Assembly: GCA_030828305.1 (NCBI GenBank)
Contig: JAURCU010000001.1
Span: 2,820-66,819, forward strand
From: Luteolibacter sp.
Lineage (GTDB): Bacteria > Verrucomicrobiota > Verrucomicrobiia > Verrucomicrobiales > Akkermansiaceae
Length of the DNA stretch: 64,000 nucleotides
Reading direction: 5' to 3'
Shown here: positions 31,445-44,964 of the stretch, one piece after another
Layout: each line of letters begins with the position of its first letter
How positions within the stretch are numbered: the first letter of the stretch is position 1
The notes under the pieces: model-generated
What the model was told of the DNA's origin: nothing
What the model saw: the letters and a program-made list of their open reading frames with translations, nothing else
Databases searched by the model: none
Translations under genes and position numbers: made by a program

Positions 31445-34400
31445 TTAGCGGCACCCGATTTTCTGGACCAGCAGTGCTTCTGCGAGAAACGACGCGGTGT
31501 TCGATCTTTTTGAACGTGCCACTTTTTCCGGAACGCCCCAGGCCACTAAACGACCTCCGCCCTCTCCCGCCTCGGGACCGAGGTCGAGAATCCAATCCGC
31601 TTCTGCGGCAACGTCCATGTGGTGCTCGATGACCACTACCGTATGGCCCTCATCCACCAAGCGATGTAAGATCTCAATAAGGCGGCGGATGTCTTCGTGG
31701 TGTAGGCCGACGGTGGGCTCCTCGATCAGGTAAAGGTTGCGCTTTTTGATAGCCGCGGTGCGCAAGCCGGCCTTCGATCCACGACCTTTGATGAGTTCAG
31801 CCACCAATTTGATGCGCTGGGCCTCTCCACCGGAAAGGGTTGGTGAGGGCTGGCCTAACTGCAGGTAACCAAGCCCAGTGTCGGCCATCAAGCGAAGCGG
31901 AACCGCAATCCGAGGTTGGGAATCGAAGAAGTCGGCGGCTTCATCAATGGTCATTGCCAGCACTTCACCGATATTGCGCGACTTGAAGCGCGCCTCAAGG
32001 GTGGCAGAGTTGTAGCGCAGGCCATTGCATGCCTGGCAATGCACCCAAGCCGCAGGTAGGAAATCCATCTCGAGCTTTATTCTTCCATTGCCTTTGCATT
32101 CCGGACAGCGTCCGCCCTCGGTGTTGAATGAAAAACGGGAGGCATCGTAGCCACGCATGCGTGCGTCGGGCAACTGGGCAAACAAGGCTCGGATGTGATC
32201 GAAGACCTTGACATACGTAGCCGGGCAGGAACGCGAGGTCTTGCCAATCGGTGCCTGATCGACTTCGTAGCAGGCCTTGATCGCCTCAAATCCGATGGCA
32301 GACTTGAATGGCTTGCGTGTAGTGCGTTTGGAGCGCACCGCCGGCGCGATACACTCGTGCAGGAGCGTTGATTTTCCTGAACCCGAAATACCGGTGATCA
32401 CCGTCAAGCGAGCAAGAGGAAATTTCACCTCGATGCGCTTCAGATTGTTGGCTGTGCAACCCACCAGTTGCAGCATGGCATGATTGCGCCCGACCGCTCG
32501 CCGCTCGCCACGCATGGGGTGCGTCATCGGATTGAGCATGGCTTTGATGGTTGGGGAATGCTCCACGGCTCTGGCCCAAACGGATTTGGATGCTTTTCGA
32601 GGGCCTTCATGGGCGGAAATGGGAGGGCCTTCATAAACCACTTCGCCCCCGAAACGACCCGCGCCCGGCCCCAAGTCGATGAGATGATCAGCGGCAGCAA
32701 TCGTGTCCTCGTCATGCTCGACAATAATAAGCGAATTGCCGTGATCGCGAAGCGCGGCCAAGGTTGCCAGCAGGGCCCGGTTATCACGTGGATGCAGGCC
32801 AATGGTCGGCTCATCGAGCACGTAGAGCACACCTCGCAGGTTGGAGCCGAGCTGCGCGGCCAAACGGATGCGCTGGGATTCACCGCCAGACAGGGTGTTG
32901 CCGGAGCGGTTGAGCTGGAGATAACCCAAACCCACCTGCTCAAGGAAGGCCAGACGCTGCCTAATTTCGGGCAGGATATCGCGCGCGATCAGGCGCTGGC
33001 GCTGATTATCAAAATCGAGCCCAGCGAAGTGGGCGGAGGCTTCCGCAATGGGCATCGCCGCCAGATCCGCAATTCCATAACCCGCCAACTGAACCGCGCA
33101 AGCCATGGCATTGAGACGTGCACCCTTGCAGACATCACACTCAACCAATTCCTGCTGATCCATTCTGTCCATGGCACGCTCGGCATCGAGCTCTGCTTCC
33201 ATTACGGAGTCAAAACGCGAGGTATCAAGGCGTCTTCCACGTCGTGCCACCACCCCATGGCCGCGGCATTGCGGACACCAACCGTGGGGTGAGTTGAAAG
33301 AAAACAGACGCGGGTCGAGATCGTCATAGGAAGCCTTGCAGCTCGGGCAGCTCGATTGGGTTGAAAGCAACTGCATGCCCTTGTCATTTGCCCGCAATCG
33401 CACCACTCCCCTGCCAATCTGCAGGGCACGCTGCATCAGGGCCGACATGCCTTTGGAGCGGGCCGACTTGAAGCGCGCAACCTCAACATCAATGTCGTGC
33501 TCCTGATATCGGGCGAGGCGTGTGAAGGATGCACCATCCACCCACTCGCCATCGACCAGTAGCCGCTCAAATCCCTGCTTGAGCGCCCACTCAGCAACCT
33601 CGCTGTGGTAACCCTTGCGGCCGCGGATGACGGGCGCAAGCAAGCTCACCTCTCCCTTGGCAGCAGCCTTGCGAATCGCATTCTCAATGGCGGCAAGCGA
33701 TTGCTTACTCACAGGCACTCCGCAGTCCGGACAGTGCATAATGCCAAGCTTGGCATATAGCAGACGGGCGAAGTTCCAAACTTCGGTAACCGTAGCAACG
33801 GTCGACTTCCCGCCCCCCTGTGAAACGCGCTGCTCAATTGCCACAGTTGGCGGCAGACCAATGAGCTGGTCGAGCTCTGGCTTTTCCAGCTGTTCTGCAA
33901 ACTGCCGAGCATAGGTCGACATCGAATCGAGAAAGCGTCGCTGACCTTCTGCAAAAAGGATATCGAAAGCCAGGGTCGATTTGCCGGAGCCGGATAGACC
34001 GGAGATCACCACCAGCTTCTCGCGCACGATGTCCAGCGACAGATTCTTGAGGTTGTGATGGCGCGCCCCTCGAAGCTCAATGGCATTCGAAGCCCGCAGG
34101 GACTTGGCGGGTTTGGAGCGCGGGCGTCTGCCCGATTTGCCGAGCACATCTTTGAGCAAGTGACCCGTAGGGCTCTTGAGCCTGGAAATCTGCTGTGGAT
34201 TCCCCTGCCCCACCAATTGACCACCCCGGTCTCCAGCTTCCGGTCCGAGGTCTAGAATCCAATCGGCAGACTTGATTACCTCCACATTGTGCTCGATGAC
34301 CAACAAGCTGTTGCCCGCATCTACCAGTCTATGGAACACCCCGAGCAGACGCTCGATATCACGAAAGTGCAGGCCCGTGGTTGGCTCGTCCATGATCAAG

Positions 34401-37036
34401 AGCCGCTTGGACTTGCTGCCCGGGTTCTCGCGCAAAAGCTTGCACAATTTGAGCCGCTGCGACTCCCCGCCCGAAAGGGTGTTGAGCGGCTGACCCAGAA
34501 GCAGATAACCGAGTCCGACCTCCACCAGAGGCTGCAAGGCGGAGTGAATCTGCCCCATCCAGCGCTGGTGCTTTTTCGAGGTGGTGAGGCCGGCGGCAAA
34601 ATGCTCGAGTGCCTCATCAACACTCAAGCCGAGCACATCGGCAATGGATAGGCCCGCATAGCTGTATTCCAGGGTAGAAGGCTTGTAGCGCCGACCTTCA
34701 CAATCCGGACAGGTCACATAAAGATCTGAGAGAAACTGCATTTCCACCTTCTCGGATCCGGTTCCCGCACAGCGGTCACAACGCCCCTCGCCGGAATTGA
34801 AAGAAAAATATCCCGGTTTGAGACCTGCCGCGACGGCTTGCGGTTCCTCACAAAACAATTGCCGAATCGCATCAAAAGCCCCGAGGAACAGGGCCGGTGT
34901 CGAGCGGGGTGTACGGGCCACAGCGCTCTGGTCCACCAAATCCACGCCGTCCAGAAGCTCGCTGCCTTCCAGGGATCGAATGGGGGCTGCCTCCCCCTCA
35001 GGGTTCTGCCCCAACTTACGCCCCAGGTTCTGATAGATCACATCATGAGCCAAGGTTGATTTGCCTGATCCGGAAACCCCGGTCAGACATACCAGCAAGC
35101 CAAGAGGCACATCGATATCCAGCTTGCTCAGGTTGTGTCGTGTCGCACCGCGTATTAGCAGCCTCTCATTGCCGGGCTTGCGAGGCTCTTTGGGGATAGC
35201 AATCGACTCGCGCCCGTCCAACCAGGGCAAAGTGCCCTGACCGCTCTTGGCATTGGCCTTACGAAAAGCCGCCGCACTCGCCGGGCCGGCATACATGACG
35301 TTGCCACCGTGCCGGCCCGCACCTGGCCCGAGATCAATCAAATGATCAGCGGCCTCCATGACTGCCTGCTCGTGCTCAACAACCACCAGCGTGTTGCCCA
35401 GATCGCGCAGACGATGCATCACCGCCACCAGTTGCTCAATGTCACGGGCATGCAGGCCAACCGTTGGTTCATCCAGTACAAATAAGGTTCCTGTCAGTGA
35501 AGCCCCCAGGCATGCCGTGAGATTGACCCGCTCGATCTCACCACCCGAGAGCGTGCGGGTGGCACGGTCGAGAGTCAGGTAGCCCAAGCCCACCTGATTG
35601 AGGTAGTAAAGACGCGAATGCACCTCCTGCAGGACCAACTTCAGGGTTGGATCCTGCGCTTTGCTTGATTTGCCATGGCGCTTGATCAGCTCCGCCACAA
35701 AAGGCAGCAGGTCGGCAACCGGCATCCGCCACAAATCCGGCAGGGTCTTGCCTTCGATCCGGAAGCACAGAGCCTGCGGCTGCAAGCGGCGGCCGCGACA
35801 AGTGGAACAAGTCGTGTAGGAGCGGTAACGCGAGAGGAACACCCGCACGTGCATTTTGTAGGCCTTGGTCTCAAGCCAATCGAAGAAGCCCTTCACACCA
35901 TACCAGTCACCGGCTTGCCACAGCGCATCCAGCTCCTCCATGGTAAGATCATCTTTTTTACTATTTCCGTAGTATATCCAATCCCTGTCGTCTTCGCTCA
36001 ACTCTTCCCATGGTCGATGGATATCGATCCCTCTTTCTGCACAACAACGAAGCAGGTCGCGTTGACACTCCTCACCCCTCTCCCCCTGAAATGGCCTGAT
36101 CGCGCCATCGGCAATGGACAGAAAAGGATCGGGAACCGCTTTCCCCATGTCGATACCGATGACCCGCCCAAAGCCGCGGCATTTCGGGCAAGCGCCCAAT
36201 GGAGAGTTGAAGGAAAACAGAGCAGGCGTGGGCGCCTGCAAGGTGAAGCCGGTACGCGGGTTGGTCCAGGCAGACACGAACTCACGCTTCAACCCACCAT
36301 CCTCTCTGTGCAACGACGCCCGTCCCTTGCCAAGTTGCAAGGCGGCCTCAAGCGCTTCGAGCAGACGCGGGCGCTCACGCGCCCCGACCTTTAGTCGGTC
36401 CTGGATGACCAGGACCCATGACAAACCTTTGAGAAGATCCATCGGTGGCTCCTCGTCTGTACGTAAGATGCCACTGTGGGCGACCACGCGCAGATAGCCC
36501 TGTTCATTGAGAAAAGCGAAGAATTCGGCAGCATTGACGTTTTCAGGCACATCCACGCAAAAAGTCACCAGAACCACCTCACCATTCATCTGGGCCAACG
36601 CCCAGTCGGCGGCCGTCTCGGCGCTATCGGGGGTGATCAGCTCGCCGGTTTCGGGATCGTAGGCCTGAGCGAGACGCGGATAGAGCAGCTTCAGGTAATC
36701 ATTGACTTCAGTGAGAGTGCCAACCGTTGAGCGGGTCGTGCGTATGTGGTTTTTCTGCTCGATGGCAATGGCCGGCGGAATTCCCTCCACCTCATCCACA
36801 TCCGGTTTGTCCATGCGGTCAAAAAACTGCCGCACATACGGCGAGAACGTTTCCACGTAGCGACGCTGGCCCTCGGCATAGAGGGTATGGAAAGCAAGCG
36901 ATGACTTTCCGGATCCGGACGGGCCGGTTACCACGGTCAATTTGCCATGGGGAATTTCAAGATCCAGATCCCGCAGATTGTGCTGGCGACAGGAGCGCAG
37001 GCGTATGACCGGACACGGCGACTTGGAATGGGGCAC
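31445..37036 (-). CDS. uvrA: Excinuclease ABC subunit A, double-length (two UvrA units in one polypeptide)
   Basis: Four Walker A motifs (GPSGSGKSS, GVSGSGKST, GLSGSGKST, GISGSGKST), four LSGGE signatures, multiple CxxC zinc fingers. Start uncertain; GTG 37036 chosen to avoid overlap with the kinase gene. Confidence 0.95.
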   Translation of the reverse strand: MPHSKSPCPVIRLRSCRQHNLRDLDLEIPHGKLTVVTGPSGSGKSSLAFHTLYAEGQRRYVETFSPYVRQFFDRMDKPDVDEVEGIPPAIAIEQKNHIRTTRSTVGTLTEVNDYLKLLYPRLAQAYDPETGELITPDSAETAADWALAQMNGEVVLVTFCVDVPENVNAAEFFAFLNEQGYLRVVAHSGILRTDEEPPMDLLKGLSWVLVIQDRLKVGARERPRLLEALEAALQLGKGRASLHREDGGLKREFVSAWTNPRTGFTLQAPTPALFSFNSPLGACPKCRGFGRVIGIDMGKAVPDPFLSIADGAIRPFQGERGEECQRDLLRCCAERGIDIHRPWEELSEDDRDWIYYGNSKKDDLTMEELDALWQAGDWYGVKGFFDWLETKAYKMHVRVFLSRYRSYTTCSTCRGRRLQPQALCFRIEGKTLPDLWRMPVADLLPFVAELIKRHGKSSKAQDPTLKLVLQEVHSRLYYLNQVGLGYLTLDRATRTLSGGEIERVNLTACLGASLTGTLFVLDEPTVGLHARDIEQLVAVMHRLRDLGNTLVVVEHEQAVMEAADHLIDLGPGAGRHGGNVMYAGPASAAAFRKANAKSGQGTLPWLDGRESIAIPKEPRKPGNERLLIRGATRHNLSKLDIDVPLGLLVCLTGVSGSGKSTLAHDVIYQNLGRKLGQNPEGEAAPIRSLEGSELLDGVDLVDQSAVARTPRSTPALFLGAFDAIRQLFCEEPQAVAAGLKPGYFSFNSGEGRCDRCAGTGSEKVEMQFLSDLYVTCPDCEGRRYKPSTLEYSYAGLSIADVLGLSVDEALEHFAAGLTTSKKHQRWMGQIHSALQPLVEVGLGYLLLGQPLNTLSGGESQRLKLCKLLRENPGSKSKRLLIMDEPTTGLHFRDIERLLGVFHRLVDAGNSLLVIEHNVEVIKSADWILDLGPEAGDRGGQLVGQGNPQQISRLKSPTGHLLKDVLGKSGRRPRSKPAKSLRASNAIELRGARHHNLKNLSLDIVREKLVVISGLSGSGKSTLAFDILFAEGQRRFLDSMSTYARQFAEQLEKPELDQLIGLPPTVAIEQRVSQGGGKSTVATVTEVWNFARLLYAKLGIMHCPDCGVPVSKQSLAAIENAIRKAAAKGEVSLLAPVIRGRKGYHSEVAEWALKQGFERLLVDGEWVDGASFTRLARYQEHDIDVEVARFKSARSKGMSALMQRALQIGRGVVRLRANDKGMQLLSTQSSCPSCKASYDDLDPRLFSFNSPHGWCPQCRGHGVVARRGRRLDTSRFDSVMEAELDAERAMDRMDQQELVECDVCKGARLNAMACAVQLAGYGIADLAAMPIAEASAHFAGLDFDNQRQRLIARDILPEIRQRLAFLEQVGLGYLQLNRSGNTLSGGESQRIRLAAQLGSNLRGVLYVLDEPTIGLHPRDNRALLATLAALRDHGNSLIIVEHDEDTIAAADHLIDLGPGAGRFGGEVVYEGPPISAHEGPRKASKSVWARAVEHSPTIKAMLNPMTHPMRGERRAVGRNHAMLQLVGCTANNLKRIEVKFPLARLTVITGISGSGKSTLLHECIAPAVRSKRTTRKPFKSAIGFEAIKACYEVDQAPIGKTSRSCPATYVKVFDHIRALFAQLPDARMRGYDASRFSFNTEGGRCPECKGNGRIKLEMDFLPAAWVHCQACNGLRYNSATLEARFKSRNIGEVLAMTIDEAADFFDSQPRIAVPLRLMADTGLGYLQLGQPSPTLSGGEAQRIKLVAELIKGRGSKAGLRTAAIKKRNLYLIEEPTVGLHHEDIRRLIEILHRLVDEGHTVVVIEHHMDVAAEADWILDLGPEAGEGGGRLVAWGVPEKVARSKRSNTASFLAEALLVQKIGCR

Positions 37037-37064
37037 GATTGAAGACTTGGATCTGGGAGCCGAT

Positions 37065-38417
37065 TTATGGCTCTGGCTTTGTTTCTGCCTCCCGTGCCGG
37101 CGAGGAAGTTGGGGGAGGCTCAGGCGGCACGGGCGAATCATCCAGCAGGTCCCTAACGGAACCTTTCTGGGAATCGATGAAGCTGCTCAGGCCATCGGTT
37201 TGGTTTTGCTCGGGTTCTGTATTCCCGCCATCTCCCCCTCCCAGCATGAGGATCACGATGCCAGCGAAGACCAGGATGATCACCGCAATCCAAATACCCA
37301 TATGACTGCCAGTTCCTGAGGACATCATCATCGCGGGCGGTTGACCGCCGAGCGCGCCAGCCCCCCTCGCAGCCCCGGCGGCAGGCGCGGCCAACCCACT
37401 TCCGGCGGGCCTGGGAACAGCAAGGGCTCCGCCACCGCCTGCTCCAAGCCTGAGGGCTCCACCGCCCGCTGTGCGCTCGGGTTTGGGCTTGGCACGAAGC
37501 ATGTCACCCTGAGACATCTGCTGGATTTCCGACCCAGCGACTGTTGACACGCCCCTGGTCTGTGAGCCAGCCGCCACAGACAACTTGGTTGCCATGGCCT
37601 GTCCGGGCTGGCTGACCTTCGCCAGCTCTGAAGCCATCTCGGCCGCAGTTTGAAAGCGTTTTTCAGGGTCAGGTTGGGTCGCCTTGCGGATGACAGCATC
37701 CACACGTGGATGGCAGCGGACCTGTAGCGACGCAGGACGCGGATCATCCTCTGGAAGCTTACCGGTGATGAGTTCATGCAGCATCACCCCAAGCGAGAAA
37801 ATGTCGGCGCGTTGGTCAAAACGGTGGGGCGGCTCGATGACTTCCGGAGCGGTGTAGCCCGGCGTGCCAAATATGGTCTCTCCGTCTTCCACTTCACGGT
37901 CAAGCGGACGGGCCAGACCGAAGTCACCGATCTTGGGCTGCAGGTGGGCATCGAGCAGAATGTTGGCCGGTTTGATGTCGCGGTGCAAAATGCCGTGCTG
38001 GTGTGCATTGGCCACGCCCGCACAAATTCCCTGCATGAGACGCAGTGATTCGGAAGTCTTGATGACTCCCCCCTTGGTCACGTTGAAGAGGGTCTCGCCC
38101 TCCACATACTCCATGATGATGTAGAGCATTCCCGCAACTTCACCAAAGTCGAAGACACCAATGAGATTGGGATGGTTGAGCTTGGCCATCGCCTTGGCTT
38201 CCGCCTCGAAGGCCGCACAGAACTCGGGATCCTGCGAAAACTCGGTGGGCAGAATCTTGATGGCAACAACTCGGTCCAGAGATTGCTGCACCGCACAGTA
38301 AACCGCCCCCATGCCACCTGTTGCGACGAGGTGCTTGATGTCGTAACCCGGGAAAAGAGATGCCAATTCCTTGGTCTCCCTGATGGCAAATCCGGGATTT
38401 GAAGCGGTATCACTCAT
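37065..38417 (-). CDS. Membrane-anchored Hanks-type Ser/Thr protein kinase (catalytic motifs intact)
   Basis: ATGGMGAVY, VAIK, HRDIKPAN, DFG, GTPGYTAPE, DIFSLG; Gly/Ala-rich linker; one TM (IWIAVIILVFAGIVILML); short acidic/Pro-rich external tail. Confidence 0.93.
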   Translation of the reverse strand: MSDTASNPGFAIRETKELASLFPGYDIKHLVATGGMGAVYCAVQQSLDRVVAIKILPTEFSQDPEFCAAFEAEAKAMAKLNHPNLIGVFDFGEVAGMLYIIMEYVEGETLFNVTKGGVIKTSESLRLMQGICAGVANAHQHGILHRDIKPANILLDAHLQPKIGDFGLARPLDREVEDGETIFGTPGYTAPEVIEPPHRFDQRADIFSLGVMLHELITGKLPEDDPRPASLQVRCHPRVDAVIRKATQPDPEKRFQTAAEMASELAKVSQPGQAMATKLSVAAGSQTRGVSTVAGSEIQQMSQGDMLRAKPKPERTAGGGALRLGAGGGGALAVPRPAGSGLAAPAAGAARGAGALGGQPPAMMMSSGTGSHMGIWIAVIILVFAGIVILMLGGGDGGNTEPEQNQTDGLSSFIDSQKGSVRDLLDDSPVPPEPPPTSSPAREAETKPEP

Positions 38418-38512
38418 AAAAGGGCCAGCGGCGAGAGAGTAGGGATATCAGCGCCTACCCGGAAATTAAGCATCAACGATGACCCGCGCAAGAGGGAATC
38501 AGAGCAGACAAA

Positions 38513-40654
38513 TCAGTGAGCAATCTTGTGATCACTACTCCATTCAATGACGTAGCCGGAAGCCATGCCATCCCTGGAACGCTCATCCCATCCCCCTCCG
38601 GGCCGCATCAACAAGGCCGAATCCTTGATCTTGGCCTCTTTGCCCTGTGGCCAATCACTGGATATCCAGGGCTCGCCGGTGGTCCATCGCCAACCCCTGC
38701 CTGCCAGATGAAACCCACCCAACCAAATCCCCTCCGGGGCGTCAGCATCCTCGGTCAACTTCTCGATATTGAATTTTTCCGCGATGCCGCCAATCACCAC
38801 CAGGTTGCCGCCTGCCGCACGGGCAGCGAGGACGGCCTGCTTCCAGGTCGCGCTGTGCGGCACATAAAGATAATTGCGCACTCCGAAGGCACGCGTGCCG
38901 GGCGGATAAATGGGCGTTGCCGTGGCCAGGGAATCCTTGGTGGTTTTGAGAAGCGACTCTAGCGATCCCGGATTGCGGCCATCCTTGCTCCATTCGATCA
39001 CAAATTCGCGTTTGAGGTCACCTTGCAGGCTTTTGAGTTCTCCGGCGGTTCCAACCGCGAGAAATTCACCGAGCATAACGGAAGGATCCCTTGGCCGCCA
39101 TGACCTTCCATCCGCGAGAGTCCAGCTGTGACGACCACTTTTGGCAGCCCCAAGCCAGAAGGGCATGCCATCGTTTTCGACAAGCTTTTCGCGCATCCAT
39201 TCCGATGTCGCCCGGGATCCGGGGATCGCCAAATGACCACCATGCATTTGCGCATACCAGAAGGCATCATCCCAGGTCATGGGCACATTGACGTGATAGA
39301 AATAGCGATTGTCCATTTCCAGGGTTCCCGGGGGAAGTTCACTGCGGGATCCGCGCGAGAGAGCGCTGCGCAAGCGCGCCAATTCCTTGGCGGCGTCTTT
39401 TTTGGAAAGGGCAGCTTGCGTGCCGGGGCGTGGGTCGGAGTCGTTGGGGAAATCATTGGCCTCGCGGGTGTGGGGATATTCGGGCGTGGACTGCTGACCA
39501 GTTGGTCTGGCGGACCGGGGAATCACCCGAACCTCATGAGTGGATACGTTGGCCTTGTCCTCGGCCTCGTTGCGGGCCTTCTTCTGTTGATACGCACCCC
39601 AAGCCACTTTGATGGCAAGCAGCAACACGACGATCACCACAAGGTGAATCCACAGTTTGGCAGATGACGGTGGCTTCAGCAACATCACTGCTGCCCTGGG
39701 CGCGGCATTAGGCCTGTCCATTCCATCCACCGCAGCCCCCTTGGCTCCAAGACAGCTTGCGCGCGGCCCGGATGCGAGGCCACTACGGGGACTTGCTGAT
39801 TGCAATGTAGACGGACTAGTCAGCTCGGCTGCTCGTTTCTTGCGTATTGACACAACCGATCTTCTGCCAGCCTTCGGGTCAAAGGCATCCAGCAGTTCCT
39901 CGTGGAATTCCACCAACTCACGGTGGCGTTTGGAGGGATCGTCGGAAGTGGCCTTTTGCACCAGGCGTTTGAGGGCAGGTCCGATATGCTTGACGCGATC
40001 CAATGCATCCACGCCCTCGGTTTGGCCGACCGCCATCTCGCGTAGGATCACACCAATCGAATAAATGTCTGCTTGGGCTGTGGGCCGGGCACCTTCCTCA
40101 GCCATTTCGGGAGCACGAAAACGAAGTGCGCTGGGATCGAGCTTGGAAGTGTCTCCCGAAGCTTGGCTAAAGCCACCGATCTTGGGCATGTGGGTCTCAT
40201 CCAGAAGGATGTTCTTAAGGCTCAGTGCCCCATGAAAGACACCATGCTTGTGGGCATGGCACATGCCGACACAAATGCCCTCAACCAGGGTCTGCAAGTG
40301 TTTCAAATGCACCGGCTCGCCCTTGGTAGAATTCCACAGGGGCTTGCCGGCGACAAATTCGCTCACCAGATAGATCATGTTCTGCTCGATGCCGGAGTCA
40401 TAGACCCCAATCAAATTGGGGTGCATGAGCTTTGCCGTTACCTTGGCGGTTGCAGCGAAGGATTCGCGAAATTCCTGAGAGCGACTGAGCTCGGGAGAAT
40501 AAAGTTTGATTGCCGCGCAACGCTCCAGCGACTTCTGTTTGACCAGATAAACCGCCTTCATCTCATCGGCCGCAAGCCTACTCACAAACTCAAAGGCAGA
40601 CATTTGCTCATTGAGATCATCCACCTCAGGAGGGATGAAACTGGATTCAGACAT
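38513..40654 (-). CDS. Membrane pseudokinase with two C-terminal C-type-lectin-like domains
   Basis: Kinase fold colinear with the neighbour but AADEMKAVY / HGALSLKN / GGF replace Gly-loop / HRDxKxxN / DFG. TM LWIHLVVIVVLLLAIKVAW. Two repeats PPGT...Y....TW..A...A...GG.L..., W(L)G, W....G..W, ..IEW. Start placed at MSESSFIPP. Confidence 0.8.
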   Translation of the reverse strand: MSESSFIPPEVDDLNEQMSAFEFVSRLAADEMKAVYLVKQKSLERCAAIKLYSPELSRSQEFRESFAATAKVTAKLMHPNLIGVYDSGIEQNMIYLVSEFVAGKPLWNSTKGEPVHLKHLQTLVEGICVGMCHAHKHGVFHGALSLKNILLDETHMPKIGGFSQASGDTSKLDPSALRFRAPEMAEEGARPTAQADIYSIGVILREMAVGQTEGVDALDRVKHIGPALKRLVQKATSDDPSKRHRELVEFHEELLDAFDPKAGRRSVVSIRKKRAAELTSPSTLQSASPRSGLASGPRASCLGAKGAAVDGMDRPNAAPRAAVMLLKPPSSAKLWIHLVVIVVLLLAIKVAWGAYQQKKARNEAEDKANVSTHEVRVIPRSARPTGQQSTPEYPHTREANDFPNDSDPRPGTQAALSKKDAAKELARLRSALSRGSRSELPPGTLEMDNRYFYHVNVPMTWDDAFWYAQMHGGHLAIPGSRATSEWMREKLVENDGMPFWLGAAKSGRHSWTLADGRSWRPRDPSVMLGEFLAVGTAGELKSLQGDLKREFVIEWSKDGRNPGSLESLLKTTKDSLATATPIYPPGTRAFGVRNYLYVPHSATWKQAVLAARAAGGNLVVIGGIAEKFNIEKLTEDADAPEGIWLGGFHLAGRGWRWTTGEPWISSDWPQGKEAKIKDSALLMRPGGGWDERSRDGMASGYVIEWSSDHKIAH

Positions 40655-41035
40655 CTGGGCGGTAGCAGGGAATGAGTGATGAGATGAAAGGGAATTCGGA
40701 GCCTGGACGCCTGGATGGCAAACACGCTCAAATGACTTCAAAGTTAAGCCATTCATGGGCTCAGCACCAAGGACAAAGGAGAGATGTCGATATGCCGCTG
40801 ATGATGCGCCCCGATTGACCCGAGCGGCGAAACTTGTCCCATGCATATCTCGAAAACGCACTTTTGTCTCCGGTGATCAGACCAACGGGCACCAAAAGAA
40901 ATGAAATAGAGATGCCTCCATTGGCTTATTTTTAATGTGGAACATAGGCGGCTTCGTCGGATAATGTGTGGAAGGCGGCTGGATGCCAAATCGGCACATC
41001 TCCATTGAATTTGTCCCAGCTTCAAATACGGCTCC

Positions 41036-41911
41036 ATGAATGACCCCAGCCAACTTGCTCTTGCCTTGATCTTCCTCTTTACTCTGGTTGGAGCTGCTTG
41101 TGCCATCCTGTTGCGTTCCCAGTTTGGTCAGTCAGGACTCAGGGCCACGCCTCCTCCCATTCCACAGGGTAAGGTAAGCGCTTGGTTTTACCGCCCCGGA
41201 GATCTGGTGGGAGCTCTCGTCCTCTACCTGGTCTTCGCCGGTCTGTTTGCGCTCAGCTGCTTGGCTGCTCCCATGGATGCCGAGGATTACACGGCGGGCG
41301 CCCTGATTTTCAGCATGGTCTTCCAGCTCATCCTTGCCGCCGTGGTCTGCAGGCTGGCACTTCGACTCACAAACTCGAACCAATGGCTCGGTTGGCGTTG
41401 GAAAGCCTGGCCATGGCTTTTTCTAATCGGACCAGGCGTGGTCATTTTTATGTTGGTCATCTTTTGGCTGATCCAACTCAGCGGCTATTTAGAATGGATG
41501 GAGTCACTCGGCGTGGAGACCATTCAGGACACAGTCAGCTTGCTGCAGGAAGGCCGGGACCCCGTGGTGCTAATCCTGCTGGTCATCACCGCCACCCTGA
41601 TTGCGCCCGTCTGCGAGGAGGTCGTGTTCCGCGGCTACCTTCATCCCATCCTAAAGAAGTACGGCGGCGTGTGGGTCGGCGCCTTATTTTCCTCTCTGCT
41701 TTTCAGTGTTGCCCATGGCAACTTGGCCGTGGCCCTGCCTTTGTTTCTGCTAGGAGCTATTCTGGTATGGCTCTACGAGTTGACCGGCTCCATCTGGGCA
41801 CCCATTGCCGTGCACTTCTGCTTCAATGCCACCACGGTTTTTGCCCAACTTGCCACCCGCAACATGGAGATCCCATCGGCCATTCTTCCCGGCCTTCAGG
41901 TCTTCCCATGA
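41036..41911 (+). CDS. CPBP (CAAX protease / Abi) family intramembrane metalloprotease
   Basis: APVCEEVVFRG, FSVAH, H..FN; multiple TM helices. Confidence 0.92.
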   Translation: MNDPSQLALALIFLFTLVGAACAILLRSQFGQSGLRATPPPIPQGKVSAWFYRPGDLVGALVLYLVFAGLFALSCLAAPMDAEDYTAGALIFSMVFQLILAAVVCRLALRLTNSNQWLGWRWKAWPWLFLIGPGVVIFMLVIFWLIQLSGYLEWMESLGVETIQDTVSLLQEGRDPVVLILLVITATLIAPVCEEVVFRGYLHPILKKYGGVWVGALFSSLLFSVAHGNLAVALPLFLLGAILVWLYELTGSIWAPIAVHFCFNATTVFAQLATRNMEIPSAILPGLQVFP

Positions 41912-41926: not shown

Positions 41927-42808
41927 ATGAATGAGGATCACCTGATAGAAGAACTGCTCAAGCAGGTACCCCTTGCGCAGGGCACTGCCGGACCTGGTGA
42001 TGATTGTGCAGTCGTGGAGCGAGAGGGAGGGCTCCTCGCGTTGCTCAAGACCGATGCCATGGTCGAGGGCGTTCATTGGTCCGCTGACACATCGCCCCAG
42101 CGTGTCGGCCACAAGGCCGTGGCCCGTGTCCTCTCCGATTTTGCAGCCATGGGAGGGCGGCCCGGGGAGTTCATGATCACTCTGGTCATCCCAAAAAAAA
42201 CGGCGCTCGATTGGTGCACCGCCTTGTATCAGGGCATGGGGGAATGCCTAAGAACCCACGGAGGTCTTATTGTTGGCGGGGAAACCAGCAGTAGCCCCGA
42301 AGGCTCACCCGCCGTTATTTCGGTGGCCGCCAGTGGCAAGGTGGAACGCGATCATTTGGTTCTTCGGAGCCATGCCACAGCTGGTGACGCCATTCTGGTC
42401 ACCGGTGAACTGGGTGGCTCCATTACCGGCAAGCACCTCGACTTCTCACCCAGGCTTGGGGAGGCTCGCTGGCTGGTGGAGCACTTCAAGCCCAATGCAA
42501 TGATGGACCTATCCGACGGCTTGGCCAGGGATTTGCCTCGCCTGGCGAAGGCATCCAACTGCGGCTTCCAACTCCGGCACGATGCCATTCCCTGCTCCGA
42601 TGGCTGCTCCACCACGCAGGCCATGACGGACGGCGAGGACTACGAACTGCTCTTCACCATCGGAGCTGATCGGGTGAATTCACTCAGGAAAGCCTGGCAC
42701 CGAAAGTTCCCCGATCTGGCGCTCACTGTCATTGGCGAAATGTGCGCCGAGCATGCAGGCGAACAGCTTGAAGGCGGCTGGGATCATTTCAGTGATTCGA
42801 TCAACTGA
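41927..42808 (+). CDS. thiL: Thiamine-monophosphate kinase
   Basis: GPGDDCAV, KTDAMVEGVH, SDFAAMGG, GGET, MDLSDGL, GEDYELLFT, GWDHF. Confidence 0.95.
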   Translation: MNEDHLIEELLKQVPLAQGTAGPGDDCAVVEREGGLLALLKTDAMVEGVHWSADTSPQRVGHKAVARVLSDFAAMGGRPGEFMITLVIPKKTALDWCTALYQGMGECLRTHGGLIVGGETSSSPEGSPAVISVAASGKVERDHLVLRSHATAGDAILVTGELGGSITGKHLDFSPRLGEARWLVEHFKPNAMMDLSDGLARDLPRLAKASNCGFQLRHDAIPCSDGCSTTQAMTDGEDYELLFTIGADRVNSLRKAWHRKFPDLALTVIGEMCAEHAGEQLEGGWDHFSDSIN

Positions 42809-43982
42809 ACTTCACCGCGTGCTTCTTTGATAGCTTTAACACGTCACCCGCCTCCGCAGAGAAGGCCGCGGCCGGATCCGTCAGCTTGACACTGTTCAAT
42901 TGCACCGCACCCGGAATGATGAACTGCTTGCGCAGCTCGCCGTTGGACTTCTTGATGCCGTAGCAACGCTCAAATGCAAGTGCGGCTACACTGAGAACAG
43001 TGACATCTCCGGGAAGTTCAGCTAGCAGCAAATCAGGAAGGTCGGCGGCAGCAAGATCGCGCTTGGAAAAACGCTGATCCCAATCGGCGCGCGCGGCCTT
43101 GGCCGCATCTTTACCATGATAACGACCTGTGAGTCGCTCAGCTAGGAACTTTTTGGCATCCATGGGATGCTGGGAAGAGTCACGCTCCTCACCGAGTAGC
43201 AACTGGTAGTAGCGATCCATGAGTTCATCGGACACACTCATCAATTTGCCATACATTTCCTGCGGCTCATCGGAAACACCCACGTAGTTATCGTAGGATT
43301 TTGACATCTTGCGCACGCCATCAAGCCCCTCGAGCAAAGGCAAGACCATGACCACCTGCTGGGGCAGTCCCTCCTCTTTCTGGAAGTCGCGGCCGACGAG
43401 AATATTGAATAGTTGGTCAGTGCCGCCGATTTCGACATCGGCACGGGTCTCCACCGAATCCCAACCCTGCATAATGGGATACTGCAGCTCGTGCAGCCTC
43501 ACCTCTTGCCCCTTGTCGATGCGGTTTTTGAAATCCTCTCGCTGCAACATCTGTTGCATGGTGACTCGCGAGTTGAGTTTTAGAACTTCCTCGTAGCTCA
43601 TCTTGCGGAACCAGTCACCATTGTAGACGATCTCGGTCTGGTCCTTGTCGAGGATCTTGAAGGCCTGATCGGTATAGGTCCCGGCGTTGGCCAGCACTTC
43701 ATCACGGGTGAGCGGCGGACGCGTGGCCGAGCGGCCCGAGGGATCGCCGATGGTGGCGGTGAAATCCCCAATCAGTAGTACCGCCTGATGGCCGAGCTCC
43801 TGGAACTGACGCAATTTTTCGAGTGCCACGGTGTGACCAAAGTGGATGTCGGGTGCGGTTGGATCCACCCCGAGCTTGATGCGAAGGGGGCGACCCAATT
43901 TGAGCTTTTCGAGCAGTTCCTTTTCGGAGAGCACCTTGGCGGCGCCGGCAGTCAGCACGGTGAGTTGTTCTTCGGGAGACAT
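42801..43982 (-). CDS. tyrS: Tyrosine--tRNA ligase
   Basis: GVDPTAPDIHFGH, EIGGTDQLFN, KMSKS, C-terminal S4-like domain. Start placed at MSPEEQL. Confidence 0.96.
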   Translation of the reverse strand: MSPEEQLTVLTAGAAKVLSEKELLEKLKLGRPLRIKLGVDPTAPDIHFGHTVALEKLRQFQELGHQAVLLIGDFTATIGDPSGRSATRPPLTRDEVLANAGTYTDQAFKILDKDQTEIVYNGDWFRKMSYEEVLKLNSRVTMQQMLQREDFKNRIDKGQEVRLHELQYPIMQGWDSVETRADVEIGGTDQLFNILVGRDFQKEEGLPQQVVMVLPLLEGLDGVRKMSKSYDNYVGVSDEPQEMYGKLMSVSDELMDRYYQLLLGEERDSSQHPMDAKKFLAERLTGRYHGKDAAKAARADWDQRFSKRDLAAADLPDLLLAELPGDVTVLSVAALAFERCYGIKKSNGELRKQFIIPGAVQLNSVKLTDPAAAFSAEAGDVLKLSKKHAVKFS

Positions 43983-44137
43983 GGTTTGTGAAATCGCTTG
44001 AGGGCGCATCATGGCGCGAGATTGGCCGATGCCAAGCATGGATGGCGGTCCGGAGCAGCACAAAAGCCCCGTTAACAACCAATTTTTGCTTTCCAAATCT
44101 GCGGGCTTCGCGCAATTCTGCCCTCCGCCAACAAAAC

Positions 44138-44214
44138 GGTGGTCGTAGCTCAGTTGGTAGAGCCCCAGATTGTGATTCTGGTTGTCGCGGGTTCGAGCCC
44201 CGTCGATCACCCCA
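44138..44214 (+). tRNA. tRNA-His (GTG)
   Basis: G-1 plus GTGGTCG/CGATCAC acceptor stem, D arm AGCTCAGTTGGTAGAGC, anticodon arm CCAGA-TTGTGAT-TCTGG, GGTTCGAG T-loop, discriminator C, encoded CCA. Confidence 0.97.
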
Positions 44215-44283
44215 TCTTTTCCATCGGGATGTGCGCATAGCACCCGCCAAATCCGGGAGGAAGGGAGGGAACCCCAGATTCTC

Positions 44284-44964
44284 ATGGAGCCGCTGGAAAG
44301 CAGGATTAACTACAAGTTTCGCAACTCCCTGTTGCTGGGCGAGGCACTGACCCACCCCAGTCTGGCTTACGAATCGCAGAAGCCCCACTTCGACAACCAA
44401 CGTCTCGAATTCCTCGGCGACGCGGTGATCCAATTGATCATCACCGAGGAACTCTATGGCCGCTTTCCATTTTTTTCCGAAGGCCAGCTCACCAAACTGC
44501 GCTCCCGCTTGGTATCTCGCACTGCGCTGGCCAAATTCGCCAGCCATATTCACCTGGGTGACTATGTCTTGCTTGGCAAGGGCGAGCAAGCCAGCGGCGG
44601 CAACAAACGCAACTCCACCCTTGCCGATGCCCTGGAAGCGCTGATCGGTGCCATCTACATCGACTCCGGCCACAAGGCCGCCCAAACCATCTTACTGCGC
44701 CTCATCGGCAACGAACTGGACAAGATGGAGGACAGTCCACAGGAAATGAATCCCAAGGGTCAGCTTCAGGAGTTGCTACAGGCCATTCATCCTGAAGCGC
44801 CCGAATACAACATTGTGAGCGAAAGTGGGCCCGATCATCGCCGCGTTTTCCAAGCTCAGGTTTTATGGCGTGGTGCGGTGCTGGCCAGCGGCAAGGGCAA
44901 GAGCAAGAAAGAGGCAGAGGCGAGGGCCGCCGCCGAGGCGCTTCGCGCCAAAAACTGGCAATAA
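44284..44964 (+). CDS. rnc: Ribonuclease III
   Basis: ALTHPS, NQRLEFLGDAV, ADALEALIGAIYID, dsRBD NPKGQLQE...GKGKSKKEAE. Confidence 0.97.
   Translation: MEPLESRINYKFRNSLLLGEALTHPSLAYESQKPHFDNQRLEFLGDAVIQLIITEELYGRFPFFSEGQLTKLRSRLVSRTALAKFASHIHLGDYVLLGKGEQASGGNKRNSTLADALEALIGAIYIDSGHKAAQTILLRLIGNELDKMEDSPQEMNPKGQLQELLQAIHPEAPEYNIVSESGPDHRRVFQAQVLWRGAVLASGKGKSKKEAEARAAAEALRAKNWQ

Follow-up and report, generated by a model that had tools for sequence, protein, structure and literature searches.

A conserved pseudokinase with a C-type-lectin-like ectodomain beside a sensor-less active-type kinase in Luteolibacter: a candidate two-chain receptor possibly shaped by complementary degeneration

Why would a bacterium maintain, side by side and on the same strand, one receptor-like protein whose kinase domain has been stripped of nearly all its catalytic elements, and another that has every one of them and hardly anything outside the membrane to sense with? 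The question is raised by two adjacent genes, A and B, in a 64,000-nucleotide (nt) stretch of DNA from Luteolibacter sp. (assembly GCA_030828305.1, contig JAURCU010000001.1, positions 2,820 to 66,819 of the forward strand), which is called the window hereafter and numbered from its first letter. A preliminary description, made from the letters of the window, had proposed that the two genes encode a two-chain glycan-sensing receptor, with ligand binding on the dead chain and catalysis on the other. Sequence comparison makes it a firm reading that A is a conserved, selected pseudokinase receptor and B a conserved active-type kinase without a sensor, and that the pair is stably adjacent, with losses that are graded and complementary. 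That the two are the outcome of complementary degeneration and form a heteromeric receptor composed of a dead sensor and a live kinase, the receptor itself being the step that we infer, seems to us about an even call. The gene models, in which open reading frames (ORFs), amino acids (aa), transmembrane (TM) helices and C-type-lectin-like domains (CTLDs) are referred to, are as follows:

38513..40654, (-): gene A, a 713-aa receptor pseudokinase with a dead kinase domain, a TM helix, a linker and two CTLD units (from ORF, Pfam, orthologue starts and motifs)
38418..38512, (-): A-B intergenic spacer of 95 nt
37065..38417, (-): gene B, an active-type Hanks kinase of 450 aa, its one TM helix followed by 55 aa outside (from ORF, Pfam and motifs)

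Both ORFs are real, and their products, said earlier to align motif by motif, do so across 312 residues at 35% identity (E 2e-46), with every motif quoted at the time being correct. The ORF of A extends upstream to a GTG at 40861; as its orthologues start at the equivalent of the ATG at 40654 (MSE..FxPPE; MSESSF), the latter is read as the start. No further kinase or CTLD genes besides A and B were found in the 64-kb window. The kinase-domain positions of A that matter for its catalytic status are these:

39869..40612, (-): A pseudokinase domain, aa 15-262 (from motifs, AlphaFold2 model and conservation)
40547-40573, (-): Gly-loop position, AADEMKAVY
40505-40516, (-): beta3 Lys motif, AAIK
40442-40459, (-): alphaC motif, FAATAK
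40211-40234, (-): catalytic-loop position, HGALSLKN
40160-40180, (-): DFG position, IGGFSQA
40106-40123, (-): APE motif, RFRAPE

Does A still belong among the kinases, and is it still equipped to work as one? Its membership of the Hanks-type superfamily (PF00069) is seen both in the Pkinase match (9e-23, 81.4 bits, cut-off 31.7; B reaches 3e-49 and 168 bits against the same cut-off) and in a bilobal kinase fold, the AlphaFold2 (AF2) model of the domain being an intact kinase fold with a predicted local distance difference test score (pLDDT) of 86.9, to which the nearest structures, by Foldseek, are PknA, PknB, Stk1 and PknI (E 1e-16 to 1e-15 for PknA/PknB). Motif by motif, A versus B reads AADEMK/ATGGMG at the Gly-loop, AAIK/VAIK at the beta3 Lys, FAATAK/FEAEAK at alphaC (Glu to Thr), HGALSLKN/HRDIKPAN at the catalytic loop and GGF/DFG at the DFG position, and the activation loop of A is shortened, with GTPGY gone and APE retained. 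By the five elements that define catalytic competence, A has the Lys alone and B has all five; two of the three residues on which the sequence definition of a pseudokinase is built (VAIK Lys, HRD Asp, DFG Asp) are gone in every orthologue of A. What A does keep, i.e., the beta3 Lys, the catalytic-loop His and Asn, and APE, is invariant in its clade.

Beyond the kinase domain, A carries the following:

39587..39655, (-): A TM helix, aa 334-356, a single strong hydrophobic helix
38987..39322, (-): A CTLD 1, aa 445-556, with a helix and a PPGT motif ahead of it
38537..38893, (-): A CTLD 2, aa 588-706, likewise with a helix and a PPGT motif ahead of it

That A is a dead kinase with one TM helix and two Cys-free C-type-lectin-like repeats is a description on which motifs, helix, Pfam and AF2/Foldseek agree. 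All four cysteines of the protein (46, 128, 132, 301) lie N-terminal to the TM helix, so the ectodomain is free of cysteine, and its CTLDs, therefore, are without disulfides. Lectin_C (PF00059) is matched in two stretches (1.6e-6, 29.3 bits, cut-off 22.6), so that the domains called in the preliminary description (Pkinase in A and B, Lectin_C in A) are all found above the respective cut-offs. The last 296 residues are modelled by AF2 as helix-CTLD-helix-CTLD (pLDDT 91.4, predicted template modelling score (pTM) 0.89), Foldseek matches this ectodomain to the tandem CTLDs of Endo180, the mannose receptor and DEC-205 (E 1e-14 to 1e-12) as well as to the single CTLDs of CD23 and mincle (template modelling score ~0.8), and a sequence profile of the ectodomain alone matches DEC-205 at 4.5e-42; since model, Foldseek matches and profile match agree, the CTLD fold predicted for A is a solid assignment. 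The functional label “lectin”, as judged from the motifs, is not solid. The EPN position is variable in the family consensus (A, for example, has WPQGKEAK), and W-D/x stands in place of WND; a canonical calcium-dependent sugar-binding C-type lectin was accordingly considered and rejected (no Cys, no EPN/QPD, no WND motif), and the glycan sensing of the preliminary description did not hold up, the calcium/sugar motifs and canonical disulfides being absent. The matches of the ectodomain profile include type II antifreeze proteins and lithostathine, CTLDs that are not known to bind sugars. As Verrucomicrobia are diderm, the ectodomain of A should, with its topology inferred from homology, face the periplasm.

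B, in turn, had been credited with all the catalytic motifs, one TM helix and about 50 external residues, and proves to be just that, 55 residues following the TM helix:

37593..38357, (-): B kinase domain, aa 21-275, with ATGGMGAVY, VAIK, FEAEAK, HRDIKPAN, DFG and GTPGYTAPE intact
37317-37358, (-): B Ser-rich juxtamembrane motif GALGGxPxxMMSS, conserved
37233-37301, (-): B TM helix, aa 373-395, one strong hydrophobic helix
37158..37193, (-): B short outside motif GLxxFIxSQxG (GLSSFIDSQKGS), conserved

The close orthologues of B (57-100% identity, 380-466 aa) are, without exception, canonical kinases lacking an ectodomain, and share the juxtamembrane motif, the TM helix and the outside motif GLxxFIxSQxG; the B kinase domain has 83% mean identity to its orthologues. 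The TM helices of A and B are conserved at 59% and 56%, respectively, versus 14-28% for the linkers (14-23% for those flanking the helix of A), and the juxtamembrane and outside motifs of B likewise stand well above the linkers, the outside motif being confined to the short-B clade that goes with the pseudokinase. More distant B orthologues (~530-650 aa, from Luteolibacter species, with a kinase-domain identity of 60-68%) have an outside helical domain and no lectin. This domain of ~180 aa (FDVxxFFxRAR ... KQxxID ... YxxGLEKQIERL), for which no Pfam match was found, is common to the longer B-type kinases, and its sites are P0139 residues ~390-554, P0011 residues ~700-900 and L017:11281-13050 (P and L numbers denote related proteins and loci); a similar extension follows the CTLDs of active lectin kinases and has been lost from both A and B of the window. 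The B orthologue P0126 (452 aa) runs at its C-terminus into UvrA-like sequence, apparently through a frameshift or because the neighbouring B and UvrA genes were fused in assembly.

As for the spacer, no terminator-like site was found on its coding strand; the promoter/terminator scan gave counts no higher than in shuffled sequence and is informative only on the spacer having no terminator-like site. One metatranscriptome contig spans 87 of the 95 nt of the spacer and covers the start of B as well, and pieces of both A and B are present in metatranscriptomes, these being low-depth contigs for which DNA carry-over is possible, i.e., weak evidence.

How old, then, is the dead state of A, and is it kept by selection? 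A word-indexed search gave nine full-length orthologues (46-99% identity, each ~700 aa), and all nine have lost the Gly-loop and the alphaC Glu and carry HG[AS]L..N and GGF; orthologues retaining HRD/DFG, which the preliminary description had named as the sign of a mere recent decay, are not among them, all being dead. The more distant P0011 (904 aa, 38% identity to A) has HGN and NFG and shares with A both the alphaC Glu-to-Thr and the HRD Arg-to-Gly exchanges, which suggests a single old inactivation for the A clade and its P0011-type relatives. Relatives at 31-33% identity to A (one of them from Luteolibacter luteus) are canonical kinases with two CTLDs and a C-terminal helical extension. 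When the window was compared with four orthologous loci by the Nei-Gojobori method (nonsynonymous and synonymous rates, dN and dS, and their ratio, omega), the pseudokinase domain of A showed 66-74% aa identity, a dN of 0.19-0.25, a saturated dS and an omega of at most ~0.08-0.17; the ectodomain is at 59-64% and the linkers at 29-40% aa identity, the kinase domain being the best-conserved region of A. The 99%-identical contig L015 differs in A by eight synonymous and six nonsynonymous changes (omega 0.23). The preliminary description had asked whether the HGA/GGF substitutions are conserved under purifying selection; HG[AS] and GGF are present in all orthologues, with omega well below 1. The dead state of A is ancient, under strong purifying selection and common to the wider HG-x/NFG clade, and a recent decay is rejected by the same dead motifs down to 46% identity and by the low omega.

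The extent of that wider clade was read from an exhaustive profile search with the ectodomain, which gave at least 430 clusters (50% identity) at an E of 1e-30 or better. The kinase state could be read in 89 alignable kinase-bearing clusters among the top 150 of the 430, with 57 being canonical and ~30 (about a third) degenerate, mostly with HG-x and NFG, the Lys kept, and the Glu and Gly-loop lost. A and 25 of the 27 degenerate relatives with a readable Lys position have kept this residue; the position of the HRD Asp, by comparison, varies through A, S, N, D, G, H, T, E and R in the wider clade. About 30 further clusters are without a kinase domain, some being fragments and several consisting of an N-tail, a TM helix and two CTLDs. 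As ~30 degenerate clusters carry the same ectodomain module, A is a member of a large, diversified pseudokinase family.

Is the pairing with B as persistent as the dead state? RNase III, TyrRS, ThiL, Rce1-like, A, B and long UvrA follow one another in this order in the window and at L015, L001/L006, L002/L003/L007, L008 and L016. In L017, L009, L019 and L020, this locus is taken by an HG-x/NFG pseudokinase-lectin, after which comes an active B-type kinase (381-605 aa), with a reverse-strand globin gene sometimes between the two. Other relatives have a single active lectin kinase at this locus (L011, L034, L031/L033), a tandem pair of active lectin kinases (L013, L029, L032) or an active lectin kinase accompanied by a B-type kinase (L026). 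If the first of the two genes is called X (A in the window) and the second Y (B in the window), the forms of Y comprise two CTLDs plus the helical domain (L013, L029), the helical domain only (L017, L019, L026) and ~50 residues (the window clade), and those of X are active, dead with the helical extension, dead without it, and kinase-less (L005), a graded series that fits complementary degeneration. An X that is a pseudokinase or kinase-less is accompanied by Y at ten of ten distinct loci, an active X at four of eight (Fisher p = 0.023, uncorrected for shared ancestry). Adjacency, for which the preliminary description had proposed a search of Verrucomicrobia genomes, is kept in every syntenic relative checked, and a loss of the pairing, which it had taken as a point that would count against it, is not seen at the syntenic locus: the A-B pair is syntenic wherever a pseudokinase occupies it.

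The second kinase of L013 groups with the B clade in a neighbour-joining (NJ) tree (bootstrap 77) and carries CTLDs plus the B-type helical domain, and the tandem state of L013/L029 may be the state before the complementary losses. The tandem active CTLD kinases lie at L013:8001-13513 and L029:6654-12179, and the second has QPD in its first CTLD (WAAGQPDN). The earlier proviso that the active kinase might have orthologues with lectin domains of their own, this copy being simply truncated, receives a divided answer: the close orthologues are all sensor-less, and the remote co-orthologues at L013 and L029 do carry such domains, which fits an ancient complementary loss and not a recent truncation of B. 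It is plausible, not proven, that X and Y stem from a tandem duplication. At the same locus in Luteolibacter luteus lies an active kinase of 391 aa without a sensor (L004:2238-3413); it shares 69% kinase-domain identity with its neighbour, the active lectin kinase P0027, and appears to have arisen as a sensor-less paralogue independently and more recently.

How might such a pair work, if it is indeed one receptor? The ancestral type at the locus would have been an active receptor kinase composed of kinase domain, TM helix, two C-type-lectin-like domains and a C-terminal helical domain, from which X (gene A) would have kept the sensor and become a stably maintained pseudokinase, and Y (gene B) would have kept catalysis, with its ectodomain reduced to a short conserved peptide. 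In a heteromeric receptor, A would then be the chain that binds the ligand and takes no part in catalysis; its CTLD pair, on the periplasmic side, would presumably bind a ligand other than a canonical calcium-dependent sugar. The kinase-fold and TM segments of A would regulate B allosterically, and B would then phosphorylate itself, the Ser-rich linkers of A and downstream targets. The grounds for proposing one receptor are that the losses are complementary, that pseudokinase and B co-occur, that the TM helices and the B peptide are conserved, and that the equivalents of certain interface residues are invariant. The last of these concerns the N-lobe back-to-back dimer interface that PknB-type kinases use, in which Leu33 and Asp76 of PknB lie: their equivalents, L43 and D86 in A, are invariant across dead and active members and in both chains, which makes this interface a plausible route for the regulation of B. 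The Arg10-Asp76 salt bridge of PknB was considered as additional support for an A/B interface and rejected, the Arg10 equivalent being Gly in B and Ala in A, so it is from the Leu33/Asp76 equivalents that the idea is drawn.

Might A and B instead be independent modules left adjacent by inherited synteny, with A serving as a self-sufficient scaffold or sensor (perhaps a homodimer to which other cytoplasmic proteins are recruited, in an MviN-FhaA-like manner) and B as a housekeeping Verrucomicrobiales kinase that receives inputs of its own? To this we assign a distinct minority chance, and several observations do weigh against A and B being one receptor. Around four stand-alone HG-x/NFG pseudokinase-lectin genes of ~850-870 aa, which lie outside the syntenic locus in another genomic context (L021:302-2851, L023:6774-9380, L024:6807-9413 and L025:1779-4382), there is no kinase within 7-8 kb; an adjacent partner is thus not required by a dead lectin kinase, and in Luteolibacter algae (L010) a lone B-type kinase sits next to the Rce1-like gene with no lectin partner. 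The whole block (RNase III, TyrRS, ThiL, Rce1 ... UvrA) is syntenic, unrelated housekeeping genes included, and the A-B adjacency may therefore be plain inherited synteny. In the metagenome-assembled genome (MAG) Luteolibacter sp. ME_XS_2108_bin13 (L005, 5682-7034), the A orthologue consists of a short N-tail, a TM helix and two CTLDs, the space up to the Rce1-like gene being too short for a kinase domain, and the short B kinase still follows; this kinase-less A could be either a real deletion or an assembly artefact, and, given L005 and the ~30 kinase-less clusters, the pseudokinase domain of A seems dispensable in some lineages. (Protein P0204 shows the same kinase-less form.) The flanks of the A TM helix are positively charged on both sides, which leaves the positive-inside rule ambiguous and homology as the source of the topology, and the kinase-domain NJ bootstrap tree does not place the long-branched A clade, so that the orthology of A is taken from ectodomain and synteny. 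Scaffolding by the MviN pseudokinase, moreover, is on record (PMC12599244). What speaks for a joint receptor and against independence is that the losses are both complementary and graded, that the presence of Y differs between pseudokinase and active loci as counted above, and that B has an outside motif and a conserved TM helix which are peculiar to the pseudokinase-carrying clade.

Even if A does act on B, the effect need not be a stimulating one. A negative regulator or decoy, which would pair with B or compete for a ligand or docking site, thereby holding B inactive or titrating the ligand, would have the same co-occurrence and conservation data behind it as the joint receptor preferred here, the sequence being silent on the sign of regulation, and dead paralogues that inhibit active partners are known in eukaryotes. 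We consider it unlikely all the same, as inhibition is not favoured by any of the data, and A L43/D86, equivalents of residues at an activating interface, fit activation slightly better. Still less probable, to the point of being a long shot, is a non-canonical enzyme activity of A, whether phosphotransfer without the usual Asp or an ATP-dependent chemistry of the SelO/SidJ kind: the invariant beta3 Lys, catalytic-loop His and Asn, and APE would suit it, as would the strong purifying selection, but four catalytic elements are gone together, the Gly-loop glycines are replaced by acidic residues, and the residue in place of the HRD Asp is free to vary across the wider clade. A recently inactivated A on its way to becoming a pseudogene, with B as a truncated copy, can be dismissed as already refuted despite the loss of the A kinase domain in the L005 MAG, the ORF being intact, the same dead motifs being present at 46% identity (38% for the P0011 type), omega lying well below 1, and the short form of B being kept in all close orthologues.

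The genes that flank the pair are the following:

41036..41911, (+): Rce1-like (CPBP) membrane protease gene, divergent; conserved on the upstream side of the lectin (pseudo)kinase
31445..37141, (-): UvrA-like gene, long and duplicated (~1900 aa), with an uncertain true start; conserved on the downstream side

The Rce1-like gene is always immediately upstream of the lectin (pseudo)kinase (window, L004, L011, L017), and several genomes have a second Rce1-like copy, which is co-oriented with the kinase and ends ~60 nt before it; a functional link between this protease and the lectin (pseudo)kinase is possible. The UvrA-like gene, co-oriented with B and kept as the right-hand neighbour of the kinase locus across Verrucomicrobiales, is twice the normal length; two UvrA_inter matches fall in it, as do numerous ABC/AAA P-loop matches. 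As listed, its ORF shares 77 nt with the end of B, but the start is uncertain, homologues aligning only from about residue 18-45. Further away, a tRNA-His (GTG) lies at 44139-44214 (+), between the TyrRS and RNase III genes, and the long ORFs drawn across it (e.g., 42801-44285 and 43702-44685) are drawn too long. Estuary, marine and salt-marsh metagenomes contain near-identical DNA, and the host of the A-B pair is a marine or estuarine Verrucomicrobia bacterium.

What would such a locus be good for? Bacterial pseudokinases have been catalogued, yet they are almost unstudied by experiment, and two adjacent genes with one TM helix each make a simple system for the control of a live kinase by a dead one. 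Since related genomes preserve intermediates, the order of complementary degeneration can be reconstructed and tested by domain swaps. With some hesitation, we would go as far as proposing a natural two-chain receptor kinase that arose by complementary degeneration and in which the CTLD chain switches B, together with an unnamed Lys-retaining pseudokinase family of Verrucomicrobiota (HG-x with NFG or GGF), although we hold this combined claim to be somewhat short of an even chance. The data point to a large Lys-retaining pseudokinase family that is missing from bacterial kinome classifications (bioRxiv 10.1101/2025.01.12.632604; PMC12599244), and to the C-type-lectin fold being widely used in bacteria as a putative periplasmic sensor.

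How does the pair compare with what has been described? In the literature searched, no bacterial receptor divided between a dead chain for sensing and a live one for catalysis was found, and searches on lectin kinases in Verrucomicrobia/Planctomycetes and on bacterial pseudokinase-kinase pairs gave nothing relevant, which agrees, as far as the papers covered go, with the earlier impression that the pair is undescribed in Verrucomicrobia. In layout, the PASTA kinases (PknB/Stk1) are similar, having a cytoplasmic N-terminal kinase fold, one TM helix and a repeat-built C-terminal sensor outside; they differ in that the sensor of A is made of two CTLDs, that A is catalytically dead, and that sensing and catalysis are on separate chains. 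Membership of the PASTA kinases proper (NF033483, cut-off 450) is rejected for both A (122 bits) and B (260 bits), with no PASTA match in either, and so is that of the defence kinases MADS6 (75-153 bits versus 460) and BREX PglW (18-83 bits versus 990), the neighbours being housekeeping genes.

Seven bacterial pseudokinase families have been named (ActPs1, ActPs2, ActPs3/MviN, GLW, CP1, DYD and DLHK), with the VAIK Lys being substituted in all seven, i.e., in every member of five of them and in 34-60% of CP1 and DYD (bioRxiv 10.1101/2025.01.12.632604; PMC12599244). These are, like the A clade, family-wide degenerate Hanks-type domains in bacteria, and differ from it in architecture, in taxa and in the Lys, which nearly all sampled members of the A clade keep; A was considered for each of the seven and, with its Lys retained, is set apart by the published family definitions. 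Neither of these two sources mentions Verrucomicrobia or lectin domains. The nearest bacterial functional analogue is ActPs3/MviN, which is, as A is, a membrane protein with a pseudokinase and a carbohydrate-binding-type domain, and in M. tuberculosis the MviN pseudokinase, acting as a scaffold, recruits FhaA (PMC12599244).

On the sensor side, the animal CTLDs (mannose receptor family, CD23, mincle) share fold and profile with A, the tandem layout being like that of the mannose receptor, Endo180 and DEC-205; they differ in that A lacks disulfides and calcium/sugar motifs and has a helix plus PPGT before each domain. On the kinase side, the closest parallels are eukaryotic, namely HER3 with HER2/EGFR, plant pseudokinase co-receptors and STRADalpha-LKB1, in all of which a dead paralogue under selection stands beside an active one. 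These pairs are an analogy only, with no common origin, and the bacterial one differs in that its active chain is nearly without an ectodomain, its genes are adjacent, and it is known here from sequence. Allosteric regulation through kinase-fold contacts, as in HER3/HER2 and STRADalpha-LKB1, is what is proposed for A and B, and the likeness to HER3 goes one step further, as there, too, the dead chain bears a full ligand-binding ectodomain, as A would.

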